DNA of 64,000 bases, taken from contig JAVJQW010000038.1 of the NCBI GenBank assembly GCA_040218735.1, positions 192,001 through 256,000 on the forward strand, written 5' to 3'. Below are positions 46,768 to 55,507 of the stretch, piece by piece (within the stretch, counting starts at the first letter, position 1; every line of letters starts with the position of its first letter). The DNA comes from Deltaproteobacteria bacterium. GTDB taxonomy: Bacteria; Myxococcota; Kuafuiibacteriia; Kuafuiibacteriales; Kuafuiibacteriaceae. The position numbers and the translations under genes are program-made. A model generated the notes under the pieces. That model saw only the letters and a program-made list of their open reading frames with translations. It was not told where the DNA came from and made no database searches.

Positions 46768-47655
46768 ATGCGTTGGCTGCTCCTGCTCTTGGTCGCTCTG
46801 TCGTTTGCTTGCGAGGGCAAGCTCGACAAGGAGCGTTTCCGTCGTCGCGCGGAGAAGGCGTACATCGAGGTCAACTCGGGTTGGACGATCATCAAGCGCG
46901 ACCTGCACGAGACGATCTTCGTGCGCGGCGATCAGGTCGACACACTCGACGTCCAGACGATGTTCGAGGACTACGAGAAGAGCGGTCAGAAGGGGTCGGA
47001 CTATTTCGAGGCCTGGATGGCGGAGCGCAAGGCGGAGGCCGAGGCGCGCCGGCGAACGCTGGAGCAGGCCAAGTCGGAGGTCATCCCGATCATCAAGAGC
47101 GAGAAGTGGATTCGGGTGCAGGACCTCGGGGCGATCGGACCGGAGCGCATCCGCGACCAGATTCGCCCATGGCGGCAGGAGGTCGCGCCCGACGTCTTCG
47201 CGGTCCTCGGCATCCCCGAGGAGAAGCTCGGCTATCGCTTCGCCTCGATCGAAGAGGTGAAGGCGTCGAAGGTCTCGGACGACGCGTGGATGAAGATCGG
47301 CATGGAGAACGTCCGCCGCATCGTCGGTGAGCCGACCGGCCAAGAGATGCGCATGGAGGACAAACTGAAGGTCTTCGACCTGAAGAACGTCGACGGCGTC
47401 TCCGCGCTGCTGCTGGACCCGCGCTTCCGCGCGAACATGCTCGAGAAGTTCTCGCTGTCAGAGCTGGGCGCGGCGGTGCCGATCCGCAACGTGCTGATCG
47501 TGTTCGACCCGGCGGACTTCACCACGATCAAACCCATCCGCGCGCGCGCGCGGCAGCTGTATGACTCGCAGAACCACCCGGGGTTCAGGGGGTTGTTGAG
47601 GTTCGATAAGAACGTGGTGACGGTGCTGGACTCGGGGGAGGACAAGAAGAAGTAG
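46768..47655 (+). CDS. hypothetical lipoprotein (DUF1444-like)
   Basis: Lipobox SFAC; [11 protein letters not shown]. Family call tentative. Confidence 0.7.
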
Positions 47656-47662
47656 AGGGGAT

Positions 47663-47916
47663 CGGATTCGGACACGGACTCGGATTCGGTTTACGGACAC
47701 GGATTCGGTTACGGACACGGATTCGGACACGGATTCGGTTACGGACACGGATTCGGTTACGGACACGGATTCGGACACGGACACGGACACGGATTCGGAC
47801 ACGGACACGGATTCGGACACGGACACGGATTCGGTTGCGGACTCGGATTCGGATTCGGACACGGACTCGGATTCGGCTACGGACTCGGATTCGGTTACGG
47901 ACTCGGATTCGGAATC
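47663..47916. repeat. degenerate hexamer tandem array (CGGATT/CGGACA/CGGACT/CGGTTA)n, about 42 units
   Basis: Read directly; higher-order 18-mer GGATTCGGTTACGGACAC recurs. Confidence 0.97.
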
Positions 47917-47920
47917 TGCT

Positions 47921-47946
47921 GGCGGCGCCCCTCGCGGAGCGCCGCC
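47921..47946 (-). terminator. GC-rich hairpin with GCGA tetraloop downstream of four-helix-bundle gene 1
   Basis: Minus strand GGCGGCGCTCC-GCGA-GGGGCGCCGCC, 11 bp with one G-U; no U-tract, so terminator role uncertain. Confidence 0.7.
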
Positions 47947-47960
47947 GGCATGACCTTCGC

Positions 47961-48314
47961 CTAATGCGTCAGCCGATACAGCATCGCGTTAATCCTATCG
48001 ATGAGCTCCATGCTCACCGCGGCGTCCTCCGCCTTCACGTACCCCCAGGCCACCGCCACGCGCAGCGCGCAACGCACTTCGTCCGCGCTGCCCGCAGCCA
48101 CCGTGTAGTGATATGTCCTCGACCCGCCCTCCCGTCGACGCCCCTCACCGAGATTCAGCGCCACCGAGCTCGCGGCGTCCCGAATCTGCTTCGCCAAGCT
48201 CGCGTCCTTCTTTCGGATCTTGCTCACCACGTCGACGAGTTCCTCGATGAGCTCCACGCTCACCTCCAGAACGATGAACCGACCAGGAGAGGCTGCATTG
48301 TTTTTTCTGTTCAT
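47961..48314 (-). CDS. four helix bundle protein (23S rRNA IVP / Avd-like family)
   Basis: LAKQIRDAASSVALNLGEG.RR...YTVAAGSADEVRCALRVAVAWGY; 117 aa. Confidence 0.9.
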   Translation of the reverse strand: MNRKNNAASPGRFIVLEVSVELIEELVDVVSKIRKKDASLAKQIRDAASSVALNLGEGRRREGGSRTYHYTVAAGSADEVRCALRVAVAWGYVKAEDAAVSMELIDRINAMLYRLTH

Positions 48315-48479
48315 ACCTCCCCCCGGCGCAGGCGGCGTGACGAACGGCCCTCCCTTCGTTCGGTTACTTTGAGTGGAATCTATTCGGTGGCTCGGTCGTG
48401 GTGGGGAATCGGAACCATAGGCCGATCGGCACGACGGTTGCGCTGCACATAAGGGATGAACAGAAAAAACAATGCAGCC
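48291..48479. repeat. perfect 24-bp inverted repeat (48291-48314 / 48456-48479) equal to the first 8 codons of gene 1
   Basis: ATGAACAGAAAAAACAATGCAGCC on - at 48314 and on + at 48456; 141-bp spacer. Confidence 0.97.
48427..48441 (+). promoter_or_regulatory. sigma54 (-24/-12) promoter pointing away from gene 1
   Basis: CGGCACG-ACGG-TTGC versus consensus TGGCACG-N4-TTGC; 14 nt before the duplicated ATG. Confidence 0.7.
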
Positions 48480-48616
48480 GTCGGCCGGTAGCTCGGTGTG
48501 TGCACCTCAACCAAGAAGACGGAGAGAGAGTCCTCCCCTTCAATCCTGCAGAAGAAAGAACCTCTCCCGTCAAAGTGCCTTAGGGAGTTGAAACCATCCC
48601 CAGTACCACGACCCCC

Positions 48617-48739
48617 GGCCGAGTCCTTGGTTGGGTTCACACCCTTTGAGCAGCGCAACGGACGCGCCAAGGCCCGCAGACGGTCCTTGTCACGCCCCCT
48701 GCGCTGAAGGGGGGCATGAACCCAACCAAGAACTCGACC
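48617..48739. repeat. 21/24-bp inverted repeat (48617-48640 / 48716-48739) equal to the first 8 codons of gene 2
   Basis: ATGAACCCAACCAAGAACTCGACC (+) versus GTGAACCCAACCAAGGACTCGGCC (-); 75-bp spacer. Confidence 0.95.
48655..48669 (-). promoter_or_regulatory. sigma54 (-24/-12) promoter pointing away from gene 2
   Basis: Minus strand TGGCGCG-TCCG-TTGC; 14 nt before the duplicated GTG. Confidence 0.7.
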
Positions 48740-49063
48740 TACCGCTTCGTGGCGCTCGACGTGGCGCTGGAGATGATTCGTCAGCTCCGAGAGCCGCTTG
48801 CGAAGATTCGAAAGCACGATGCGGATTTGGCGAAGCAGATTCGGAAGGCGGCGGCGTCGGTGCCGTTGAACGTCGCGGAGGGGAGCCGGCGCGCGGGGGG
48901 CGATAGAGCGTATGCGTTCCGAGTTGCGCTCGGGAGCGCCGACGAAGTGCGCGCGGCGTTGCTGTGCGCGGATGCGTGGGGGTACGCGGAGGTGGACGAG
49001 GAGCTACTGGCGACGCTGGATCGCTTGATGGGGCTCATCTGGGGGCTCGGCGGTAGGCGGTAG
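48716..49063 (+). CDS. four helix bundle protein (23S rRNA IVP / Avd-like family), paralog of 47961-48314
   Basis: LAKQIRKAAASVPLNVAEG.RR...FRVALGSADEVRAALLCADAWGY; 115 aa. Confidence 0.9.
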   Translation: MNPTKNSTYRFVALDVALEMIRQLREPLAKIRKHDADLAKQIRKAAASVPLNVAEGSRRAGGDRAYAFRVALGSADEVRAALLCADAWGYAEVDEELLATLDRLMGLIWGLGGRR

Positions 49064-49065
49064 AG

Positions 49066-49107
49066 GAGGAGGCTCGGCGCCGTCGCGAGGCGGCGCCGAG
49101 CCTCTTC
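49066..49107 (+). terminator. GC-rich hairpin with GCGA tetraloop downstream of four-helix-bundle gene 2
   Basis: GAGGAGGCTCGGCGCCGTC-GCGA-GGCGGCGCCGAGCCTCTTC, 19 bp with two G-U. Confidence 0.75.
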
Positions 49108-49117
49108 GATCGCGACT

Positions 49118-49299
49118 CGGAAACGGAGACGGACTCGGATTCGGACTCGGACTCGGACTCGGACTCGGATTCGGATTCGGACTCGGATTCGGACTCGGAT
49201 TCGGATTCGGAATCGGACGCGGAATCGGAATCGGAATCGGAATCGGAATCGGAATCGGAATCGGATTCGGTAACGGATTCGGACTTGGTGTCCGAATCC
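49118..49299. repeat. degenerate hexamer tandem array (CGGACT/CGGATT/CGGAAT)n, about 28 units, ending in a hairpin
   Basis: Read directly; terminal GGATTCGGAC-TTGGT-GTCCGAATCC (49275-49299) is a perfect 10-bp stem. Confidence 0.97.
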
Positions 49300-49962
49300 C
49301 TACGAATCGATCTCCTCGCGCGCCCGCGCATCCAACAACGCGTTCAACCCCCGCGAGATCTGCTGCGGCTCGTACGTCCCCCGCGGCACGCACCGCCGAT
49401 ACACGTCACCGTTCGTCGCCGCCGTCACGGCGTCGCGGATCTCGTCGAGGGGCTCGACCACCAGCGAGTCCAGTCGTCGGGAGAAGAACACGAACACCAC
49501 GAACGCGATCAGGCCGACGGCGGCGGCGGACCAGGCGCCGGCGAGGCCGAGGCGTTGGGCTTCGGTGTCCTGTTCGCGCATGGAGCGGCGGTTGATGCCG
49601 GAGAGGGCGACGATGGCGTCGACGACGCGGCCGCGGACGGCGCGGTCGTTGGGGCGCTCGAACATCGTCTTGGCGTCGCGTTCGATCGCTTCGAGGTAGG
49701 GGCGCTCCTCCTCCTCCGTGACGTTGTTCTTGGCGCGCTCGAGCGCGCCGTCGAACTGCGTACGCCCCTCCTTGTCGAACGACTCCGTCGCGATCACCGT
49801 CAGCATCTCCTCCGCCGCGCGGATGCTGTACTCGTTCTCCGCGAGGATGCGCTCGATCGCCGGGGACATGCGGGCGAGGAGGGCGATGCCCGTGAAGACG
49901 CCCGCGAGCTGGAACACGAAGAGCGTCCCGACCGCCGCGCGGATCTCGCGGCGGACCGTCAT
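49300..49962 (-). CDS. two-TM sensor-like protein with periplasmic helical domain and HAMP, no kinase domain
   Basis: TM, then ILAENEYSIRAAEEM...NNVTEEEE, TM, HAMP (EPLDEI...GD...E...I....N.LL); coupled to trkA. Confidence 0.75.
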   Translation of the reverse strand: MTVRREIRAAVGTLFVFQLAGVFTGIALLARMSPAIERILAENEYSIRAAEEMLTVIATESFDKEGRTQFDGALERAKNNVTEEEERPYLEAIERDAKTMFERPNDRAVRGRVVDAIVALSGINRRSMREQDTEAQRLGLAGAWSAAAVGLIAFVVFVFFSRRLDSLVVEPLDEIRDAVTAATNGDVYRRCVPRGTYEPQQISRGLNALLDARAREEIDS

Positions 49963-53920: not shown

Positions 53921-55507
53921 ATGATCTTCCACTGTCCCGCCTGCTCGGCCGGGCACACGGTGCCGGTCTCGATGATCCCGAACGGCGGGATGGACATGAC
54001 CTGCCGCCGCTGCTCCGCGTCGTTCCTGGTCGACGTCGACGAGCCCGCGGTCGTCGAGGAGGAGGATCCGACGGTCGCCGCCAAGGCCGAAGCGACCGCG
54101 ATCGGGGTCGCGAACCCCTACGACGAGCTCGTCCCCGACGCCCAGCTGATCCGCCCCGGCGGCGAGCTGCTCGACCTGGACGACTCCTCCGACGACACCG
54201 AGGCCCTCGTCGCGGCCGAAGACCGCGCCCGCTCCGCCGACAAACCGACGATCCCGATCGACCACAAGCGTGTTCCGCTGGGCCCGGACGAGGTGGGCGT
54301 CGACCCGGAGATCGACAACACCCAGCGCTTCGACGTCGAGGAGGAGGACGTTCCGACCTACGAGCCGGACGTCATCGGGATGCAGGACATCGATGGCGGC
54401 GGCCTCGGCACCTCACGTCCCCCGAGCCGCCGCGCGCCGACCCCGGAGCCGCGCAAGCTGGGCGGCAGCAAACCGCCGCCCTCGTCGTCGACGACCCGGC
54501 CTCCGTTCGACCGTGACGATCTCTACGCCAAGGTCGCCTCCGGCCGCTACGAAAAGCCCGAAGCCCCACCGGAGCCGGCCTCCAACGTCCCGCGCGAACG
54601 CGCTTGGAACGAACCCTCGTCGCTGATCTTCACCGGCGCCGGATCCGACTCCGCGCTGCGACGCTTCGCCGAGTGGCTCAACCGCGCCCCGTTGCCGCTG
54701 AAGGTCGCGTTGATCGTGTTCCCGGTGACGCTGGGCCTGACGCTGGTGCTCACGGCGGGGCCGAAGCGGGGGGAGCCGGTGGACGTGGGGGCCGTGGGTT
54801 CAGTGGATTCTACTCAAACGAGCCCCAGCGAGGTTCCCGGTCCGGGTCCCGGTCCGGGTCCCGAAGCGGGCACGGGTTCGGGATCGGGCAAGGGCTCGGG
54901 CTCGGACTCGGACACGGGATCGGATTCGGACTCGGATTCGGACACGGGATCGGATTCGGGATCGGATTCGGACTCGGACTCCGGGTCGGATTCGGACACC
55001 GACGCGGACGCCGTCGCTCGTTCGCGTTCGGGACCCGGACCGGAACCGGGACCCGGACCGGGTGCCCTGCGCTTCCGCGACCCCACGGCGGCTGAGGGCC
55101 AAGCCTACATCCAAGCCCCCAACACCCGCCTCCGCGCCACCGCGGCGCCGCGCGGTCGCACCGTCGCGCGGCTCGGCGCCGGACAGCTGGTCCAGCGCTA
55201 CGATCGGCGCGGCGAGTTTGCGTTGGTGTTGGTCGCGCCGGACGGTCCGGTCGGGTTCGTCGACGAGGGGCGCCTCGGGGCGCGAAAGCCGGTCGTGGCG
55301 CTCGCCGAGGACATCGCGTTCGAGGGGTGCTCTTCGACCGGGAGCACGCTGGACGCATGCCTGTTCGCGGCGAAGCAGAAGGAGGGCGCGTGCGTCGACG
55401 GCTGTGGTGCCGACGGTGCGCGCTGTCGCGAAGCCTGTCAGATCGCGTTCGAGCGCTGCACGCGCCAGTGCCAGCCGCCGAAGCGTCGGCGGCGTCGGCG
55501 GCGTTGA
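53921..55507 (+). CDS. MJ0042-type zinc-ribbon membrane protein with SD-repeat linker, SH3-like and Cys-rich C-terminal domains
   Basis: CPAC...CRRC...F at N-terminus; acidic linker; TM; RLRATA...VARL..G; CxxxC repeats. Confidence 0.8.
   Translation: MIFHCPACSAGHTVPVSMIPNGGMDMTCRRCSASFLVDVDEPAVVEEEDPTVAAKAEATAIGVANPYDELVPDAQLIRPGGELLDLDDSSDDTEALVAAEDRARSADKPTIPIDHKRVPLGPDEVGVDPEIDNTQRFDVEEEDVPTYEPDVIGMQDIDGGGLGTSRPPSRRAPTPEPRKLGGSKPPPSSSTTRPPFDRDDLYAKVASGRYEKPEAPPEPASNVPRERAWNEPSSLIFTGAGSDSALRRFAEWLNRAPLPLKVALIVFPVTLGLTLVLTAGPKRGEPVDVGAVGSVDSTQTSPSEVPGPGPGPGPEAGTGSGSGKGSGSDSDTGSDSDSDSDTGSDSGSDSDSDSGSDSDTDADAVARSRSGPGPEPGPGPGALRFRDPTAAEGQAYIQAPNTRLRATAAPRGRTVARLGAGQLVQRYDRRGEFALVLVAPDGPVGFVDEGRLGARKPVVALAEDIAFEGCSSTGSTLDACLFAAKQKEGACVDGCGADGARCREACQIAFERCTRQCQPPKRRRRRRR
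54836..55062. repeat. in-frame (CGGATT/CGGACT/CGGACA)n array bracketed by roughly 30-36 bp inverted repeats
   Basis: 54836-54865 is the reverse complement of 55027-55062 apart from one 6-nt unit. Confidence 0.9.

Follow-up and report, generated by a model that had tools for sequence, protein, structure and literature searches.

To our knowledge, no function has been assigned to the large PF05635/TIGR02436 protein family outside diversity-generating retroelements (DGRs), and the open reading frames (ORFs) of rRNA intervening sequences (IVSs) have been a puzzle since the 1990s. Here we analyze a unit of 1,644 bp at positions 47656..49299 (no strand) of a 64,000-nt stretch of DNA, hereafter the window, from a Deltaproteobacteria bacterium of the Myxococcota (contig JAVJQW010000038.1), in which two genes of this family, A and B, are enclosed by two convergent host genes and their stop codons. 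With a probability of roughly 0.65, the unit is one of three copies of a 1.6-kb insertion cassette that has no transposase, and represents a composite form, specific to this lineage, of the PF05635 cassettes with flanking hexamer arrays that related genomes carry.

Comparison with described systems

PMC4990558 describes a 23S rRNA IVS of Coxiella burnetii, with S23p, whose 28-bp terminal stem is cut by RNase III, and it cites the old idea that the ORFs of rRNA IVSs serve mobility. The Coxiella IVS and our unit are alike in possessing a PF05635-family ORF within a small selfish insert, a long stem (28 bp in the IVS, 28-nt outer arms in the unit) and a sporadic distribution. Unlike the IVS, the unit lies outside rRNA, all three copies being located between protein-coding genes and none inside a helix of the 23S rRNA gene. 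It contains two genes rather than one, its stems enclose a leader and start codon but not the whole ORF, and it carries sigma54-type sites, hairpins with GNRA loops and long direct hexamer arrays, which the IVS does not.

PMC10053308 links PF05635 to Avd, the accessory protein of DGRs. The proteins of the unit and Avd (PDB entries 4DWL and 8UBE) have the four-helix-bundle fold in common, and PDB entries of family members hold five chains; unlike in a DGR, no copy of the unit has a reverse transcriptase in its vicinity. Elements resembling miniature inverted-repeat transposable elements (MITEs) and integron cassettes are, like the unit, small, multi-copy and intergenic, without a transposase of their own, and integron cassettes also have an imperfect palindrome beside a small ORF. 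The unit departs from both in its conserved and selected ORFs, in the lack of any target duplication found, in a palindrome that lies 5' and includes the start codon, and in having no integrase nearby. Apart from a DGR review and the Coxiella IVS paper, our literature search returned nothing, and neither of these describes PF05635 cassettes outside rRNA. The unit is a two-gene variant of a class that apparently lacks a published description and is related to the rRNA IVSs, and is likely a selfish gene cassette of a kind absent from the published literature.

Three copies and their insertion sites

The genome of the window (G000, with the window copy on contig C66) contains eight PF05635 matches, six of which form three A/B pairs, and four of those six are at contig ends. 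Apart from the window copy, there is a copy 2, represented by C43 (A side) and C70 (B side), and a copy 3, represented by C13 (A side) and C33 (B side). DNA similarity among the copies ends at the arrays and the neighboring host genes are unrelated. Copy 2 (C70:1-1900 and C43:1-1600) is situated between rbfA and truB of an infB-rbfA-truB-pnp cluster, with its gene A running in the same direction as truB, and copy 3 is flanked by an unnamed gene and by one that resembles a carbamoyltransferase gene.

Empty sites are found in relatives. In the same-genus genome G001, orthologs of the host genes that flank the window copy (83% and 73% amino acid identity) end 4 nt apart, as TAG-ggcg-TCA, and the 1,644 bp including both arrays are absent. 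Likewise, rbfA directly abuts truB, with no PF05635 gene between them, in all four family relatives where truB was found. The unit, including its arrays, is inserted DNA directly behind host stop codons. The left array and its hairpin are also present, at the site of the window copy, on a contig of another public run whose host gene is approximately 99% identical. From the three copies, the empty sites and this close-strain contig it follows that the unit is neither an assembly artefact nor a local duplication. An earlier note on this DNA had pointed to two paralogous small genes between convergent host genes, had supposed a repeat-associated mobile cassette or else a putative protein-plus-RNA module, and had named empty sites in relatives as a check and a local duplication or assembly artefact as the danger. 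The host ORFs, which end at 47655 and 49300, the three copies in different contexts, the two empty sites and the close-strain contig bear it out on the gene arrangement and on the cassette reading, and speak against a duplication or artefact. The labels "lipoprotein" and "HAMP" that it gave to the host neighbors are unverified, because a Pfam profile search assigned neither flanking host protein to any family.

The ends of the window copy have a small symmetry: the terminal 12 nt of the right array are the inverse of 47664-47675, and the 12-nt GGATTCGGACAC is present in inverted form at both ends. No direct target duplication is visible beside the inverted GGATTCGGACAC, and a TA or CTAG target duplication was dropped as a model since it fails on the truB side of copy 2. 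A Campbell-type integration into an array already in place is unsupported, the two empty sites showing no array. Joints linking array 1 to array 2, with skips of 1446, 1257 and 1241 nt, were not counted as excision products, because they have only 30-40 nt on one side, with extra letters in between, and may stem from other arrays.

A separate observation concerns the host stop codons. TAG is the stop codon, and lies 0-4 nt from the edge of the element, in all five host genes that adjoin a copy at their 3' end (window 47653-47655 and 49300-49302; C13 at ~620, C33 at ~1123 and C70 at ~1120). In a crude genome-wide count, TAG accounts for 21.5% of stops and TGA for 71.5%, and in relatives the same host genes vary: one of the two G001 orthologs ends in TAG and the other in TGA, and of four rbfA genes three end in TGA and one in TAG. 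Either the element prefers TAG stops or it supplies TAG.

The proteins encoded by genes A and B

Gene A (47961..48314, minus strand) encodes a four-helix-bundle protein of 117 amino acids and gene B (48716..49063, plus strand) one of 115. The two genes are head to head and are diverged paralogs, 50% identical. Both exceed the cut-offs of the PF05635 profile (56.9 bits for A and 47.4 for B; cut-off 33.8) and of TIGR02436 (56.3 and 51.5 bits; cut-off 24). An AlphaFold2 model was made for gene A alone, from an alignment of 47 sequences; an earlier single-sequence model, with a predicted local distance difference test score (pLDDT) of 47, was discarded. The model consists of four helices in an up-and-down bundle with a pLDDT of 92.7, and it matches 2GSC and 2RLD with template modeling (TM) scores of 0.78-0.81 and the DGR protein Avd (4DWL) with a TM score of 0.77 and a root mean square deviation of 1.7 Å; 8UBE chain D was also matched. 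Gene A and Avd are 12-13% identical in sequence. The profile scores and the structural match agree with the family assignment and the relationship to Avd that had been claimed when the locus was first read.

Between copies of the unit, the synonymous divergence (dS) is 0.20-0.26, and the ratio of nonsynonymous to synonymous divergence (dN/dS) is 0.015-0.039 for gene A and 0.06-0.08 for gene B. These ratios indicate that strong purifying selection keeps both proteins and that the genes are functional. Among the three copies, 10-11 columns per 100 nt vary in the gene bodies. In A (48220-48314) and B (48716-48810), the first 95 nt are near-invariant, with 1 and 2 variable columns (1.1 and 2.1 per 100 nt), and this near-invariance exceeds what the 28-nt arms of the palindromes described below would explain. 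No close relatives of gene A were confirmed in the genome-contig collection, and the exact 24-mer of the gene A start had 0 matches in the metagenome-contig collection.

PF05635 cassettes in related genomes

Across 20 genomes of the class, the number of PF05635 matches is 0 in 12 genomes, and 1, 1, 6, 8, 10, 14, 26 and 86 in the others; G001 has 0. Among 40 related genomes, identity to gene A does not exceed 45% even in the closest homologues. A tandem array lies beside the gene in six of six loci from G006, G010, G011 and G032, with periods of 6-41 nt. In G003, the ATG is immediately preceded by (CCTGGA)n and the stop codon followed by (TCCAGG)n in 10/10 sampled copies, so that the arrays are inverted, and their arms pair around the ORF in each of the three copies folded. 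In G006, (CCCGGT) and/or (CGGGAC) arrays accompany 13 of the 16 copies sampled, and the copies in G012 have a short 7-mer run only. G022, which belongs to another family, has 16 PF05635 matches in a repeated unit, with a (CCGCNN)n array upstream in 11/11 full loci and, in eight of these, also beyond a second, convergent gene, which is a PF05635 gene in the one locus tested. Paired paralogs between direct arrays are therefore present in two lineages.

The array-armed cassettes of G003, G006 and G022 have in common with our unit the PF05635 ORF, short-period arrays on both sides, many copies, a position behind host stop codons and a lineage-specific hexamer. Those of G003 and G006 have a single gene between inverted arrays, whereas our unit has two head-to-head paralogs, direct arrays and private start-codon palindromes. 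The earlier note had proposed an ordered architecture of five parts for each gene (an inverted copy of the gene start, an outward sigma54 site, an inward variant site, a post-stop hairpin and an array) and had looked to the wider family for it. Tandem arrays are indeed common beside PF05635 genes, as the six loci show, but the start-codon inverted repeat is present in 0 of 20 homologous loci in other genomes and there is no comparable pair of sigma54-like sites among 51 loci of other genomes, and the five-part architecture is not a family trait but is peculiar to this element.

Other features of these genomes were noted in passing. G006, a relative within the family, has the 86 PF05635 matches; among those listed, a single in-frame stop codon interrupts at least 16 (14 TAG and 2 TAA). 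Directly upstream of the closest gene A homologue in another genus (locus L010, G011:C1, 584-1344) is a 41-nt tandem repeat in 18 copies. In 11 G022 loci, L020 among them, the second gene opens, as read by eye, with codons made of hexamer repeats that are the inverse of an array approximately 100 nt upstream, and the leader of the first G022 gene, also read by eye, carries an anti-Shine-Dalgarno stretch.

Start-codon palindromes and sigma54-type sites

An inverted-repeat search and folding identified two palindromes at the starts of genes A and B, neither assigned to a strand. Palindrome A (48291..48479) has outer arms at 48291-48318, comprising the Shine-Dalgarno sequence, ATG and first eight codons of gene A, and at 48452-48479; the arms are 28 nt long and 96% complementary, and the interior is partly paired. 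Palindrome B (48617..48739) is one continuous stem-loop of ~60 bp that buries the Shine-Dalgarno sequence, ATG and first eight codons of gene B, with 28-nt arms (48712-48739 and 48617-48644) that are 86% complementary. The predicted folds have energies of -86.1 kcal/mol (z -5.9) for A and -73.4 kcal/mol (z -6.5) for B, and in either case 0 of 200 shuffled sequences were as stable. Between the palindromes is a non-coding spacer (48480..48616, no strand), which has a 13-nt insertion in copy C70 and 10 variable columns per 100 nt.

The outer arms of palindrome A are identical in all three copies. The distal arms have 0 and 3.6 variable columns per 100 nt, compared with 16-18 in the palindrome interiors. 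In hairpin B, two of the 42 predicted pairs show a compensatory change among the three copies and none is broken; covariation across three sequences gives modest support for a selected structure.

Two sites of sigma54 (-24/-12) type are embedded in these palindromes. We scored the consensus TGGCACG-N4-TTGC (GG-N10-GC) over 11 positions, and CGGCACGacggTTGC (48427..48441, plus strand), which faces gene B with a predicted transcription start at ~48452-48454, and TGGCGCGtccgTTGC (48655..48669, minus strand), which faces gene A with a predicted start at ~48643-48645, each match at 10/11; they are the sole matches of 10/11 or better in the 64-kb window. The two sites are at mirrored positions, 15 nt from the stub start codon, and are aimed at the partner gene. 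Each has a mirror arm, established by the fold, in the form of a proximal "variant" site, GTCACG-N4-CTGC, read from the sequence 14 nt before an ATG: 48328..48341 (minus strand) before gene A, which is the mirror of 48427-48441, and 48689..48702 (plus strand) before gene B, which is the mirror of 48655-48669. All of the five parts that had been described earlier are thus present in the sequence (28-nt start repeats, two 10/11 sigma54-like sites, GTCACG-N4-CTGC variants, GCGA hairpins and arrays), but three of them, namely the repeat at the start, the outward site and its inward variant, are not independent of one another, because folding shows them to be arms of one long imperfect palindrome.

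Across copies, the 48427-48441 site reads GGCACG in the window copy and C70 and GGCGCG in C33, and in the 48655-48669 site the -24 and -12 blocks are kept in all three copies while two spacer bases vary. The exact motif GGCACG-N4-TTGC occurs 35 times in the 11.6-Mb genome, 29 of them outside a coding mask that spans 61% of the sequence. One rpoN gene and about 90 activator genes are present in the genome, and a promoter scan found no sigma70-like promoter in 47600-49350.

When aligned by eye, the four arms have a common G(G/T)C(A/G)CG-N4-(T/C)TGCGC. In all three copies, both distal arms are of the form GG...TTGC and both proximal arms have a disabled version of the site, GT...CTGC, with a G-rich Shine-Dalgarno sequence. 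Since this asymmetry is found in both paralogs and in all three copies, it predates the split between A and B, and from the alignment it looks to be selected.

Post-stop hairpins and hexamer arrays

Directly after the stop codon of each gene the inverted-repeat search found a GC-rich hairpin with a GCGA (GNRA) loop, at 47917..47950 (minus strand) for gene A and at 49066..49107 (plus strand) for gene B, the loop being on the sense strand of its own gene in both. The gene A hairpin is kept in C13 and C43, with a GAGA loop in C43, and the gene B hairpin is kept in C33 and C70.

Beyond the hairpins are the arrays. The left array (47659..47915, plus strand; 47659-47913 by Tandem Repeats Finder) is (CGGATT/CGGACA/CGGACT)n with about 42 units. 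The right array (49117..49299, plus strand; 49117-49283 by the same program) has the same orientation, being (CGGACT/CGGATT)n followed by (CGGAAT)n, with its last 13 nt flipping to GTGTCCGAATCCC. All six flanks of the three copies have arrays, and in every copy both read CGGNNN on the plus strand, which makes them direct repeats. The left array is 72 nt shorter in the close strain, the hexamer make-up varies among the three copies, and the right array is self-complementary at 72%. An Rfam scan returned sub-threshold microRNA look-alikes on the array only.

The CGGNNN motif by itself is not diagnostic, because most of the arrays in the genome encode linkers: there are 56 CGGNNN/CCGNNN arrays of at least 90 nt, and most are apparently coding, producing Ser/Asp/Glu/Gly runs inside long ORFs with high GC at third codon positions. 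The six arrays that flank the three units encode no sensible peptide, and the stop codon of the adjoining host gene comes before the array, for which reason the idea that they are coding tails of host genes was dropped. A third hexamer array in the window (54835-55062) is inside an ORF, where it specifies a linker rich in Gly, Ser and Asp. Intergenic hexamer arrays that lack a gene also occur outside the window, just past host stop codons, at C66:150636-150785, C8:143769-143905, C42:399330-399470 and C61:134890-135320; one of these terminates in the GGGGATCGG motif that the unit also has, and one consists of two arrays in inverted orientation. Such gene-less arrays behind stop codons may be solo remnants or landing sites.

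Proposed mechanism and alternative explanations

How might the parts of the cassette work together? Each gene would be read from the sigma54 promoter in the distal arm of its partner, and each long leader would therefore hold its own full hairpin, which would block translation of its own gene. The two convergent leaders would overlap by ~190 nt, and the hairpin could be opened by leader-leader pairing, by RNase III cutting or by binding of the proteins. A and B would be Avd-like nucleic-acid binders that probably act on the repeats or hairpins of the cassette itself, for its upkeep or spread. This scheme of sigma54 cross-transcription and leader hairpins is put forward tentatively, at less than even odds, on the strength of sequence features. 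A wider generalization is rather doubtful: that PF05635 proteins are the active factor of a widespread class of transposase-free insertion cassettes, in which an Avd-like oligomer recognizes its own lineage-specific hexamer arrays or hairpins and drives the copying of the cassette, its insertion past stop codons or its retention. The rRNA IVSs and the Avd of DGRs would then be specialized offshoots, and our unit a two-paralog, sigma54-controlled form with mutual cross-activation.

Several results weigh against the insertion cassette and against the roles suggested for its parts. The copies show neither a clear terminal repeat nor a target duplication, and no mobility enzyme is known for the unit; the empty sites come from other species, that of the window copy from one genome that is 75% complete. 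Arrays are beside neither of the two other PF05635 genes of the genome, one of which is on C39, where the start was not placed and the flanks were checked for arrays only. The arrays are direct here and inverted in the G003 and G006 cassettes, and the mutual duplex of the two arrays is no better than their self-folds (cofold -190 kcal/mol, versus -182 kcal/mol apart), so flanking arrays as pairing arms were rejected. In hairpin A, none of the 65 predicted pairs is compensatory among the three copies and four are broken, in one copy each. Control motifs are likewise enriched outside the coding mask (57-75%), and the sigma54 motif is therefore a moderate predictor only. Finally, the antisense strand folds better than the sense strand (-90 versus -71 kcal/mol for hairpin B and -98 versus -84 for hairpin A), and an mRNA-leader role is therefore not favored. 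The antisense strand folds better in 3/3 copies of hairpin B and 2/3 of hairpin A, which favors an alternative in which the palindromes of the same insertion cassette act as DNA: hairpins or cruciforms in single-stranded DNA would be recognized during copying or movement, like attC or the ends of IS200/IS605, and the sigma54-like motifs would be incidental. It would also fit the first 95 nt of both genes, which are more invariant than 28-nt arms require, and gene conversion inside the palindrome could keep the arms identical. However, the identical asymmetry of the arms in both paralogs and all three copies (GG/TTGC distal, GT/CTGC plus Shine-Dalgarno proximal) points to distinct functions for the arms and not to homogenization, the GNRA loops on the sense strands of the genes point to features at the RNA level, and no HUH or integron-type enzyme was seen, although no search aimed at these was made. 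We consider this DNA-level role unlikely.

The inverted repeats enclose a promoter-like site directed away from the gene, and the spacing from site to start is 15 nt on the stub side and 14 nt on the side of the real gene, as would suit 28-bp repeats that bound an invertible promoter, a phase-variation switch in which a flip puts the canonical sigma54 site 15 nt before the real start codon. Yet all six segments (three copies, two each) have one orientation, which is also seen in contigs from two further runs that extend across the A segment (48319-48451), and in one case across the B segment too. No strand-changing joint is present among the joints listed for public runs, which is weak evidence as contigs drop rare forms. 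The 12 tyrosine recombinases of the genome are not on any of the five copy-bearing contigs, no serine recombinase was found genome-wide, and the inverted transcript would have no Shine-Dalgarno sequence, all of which makes such a switch very unlikely. The dependence of the first empty site on a single, incomplete same-genus genome and the lack of a target duplication or clear terminal repeat would also be compatible with a unit that is not mobile, namely an old chromosomal paralog pair that was lost in relatives, with the other two copies being segmental duplications. That is highly improbable when the copies are homologous no further than their arrays and lie among unrelated genes, when copy 2 interrupts an rbfA-truB pair that is adjacent in 4/4 relatives, when G001 has no PF05635 match at all, and when copy numbers in the class span 0 to 86. 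As for A and B being the Avd accessory proteins of a DGR, the shared fold (TM score of 0.77 to 4DWL, and 8UBE chain D) and the equation of PF05635 with Avd in PMC10053308 would suit it, but the five reverse-transcriptase matches in the genome include none on C66, C13, C33, C43 or C70. A DGR is excluded for want of a reverse transcriptase linked to any copy, and we give this explanation next to no credence. The insertion cassette without a transposase is the reading that we prefer.

Implications

Such cassettes can occupy the rbfA-truB operon, beside essential translation genes, without destroying it. For annotation, there is a warning: hairpins, arrays and sigma54-like sites at loci of this kind belong to the insert and not to the host genes. 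With clean filled and empty sites, three copies under selection, and defined RNA/DNA structures, the role of stand-alone IVS proteins becomes testable in a myxobacterial background of a cultivable type.

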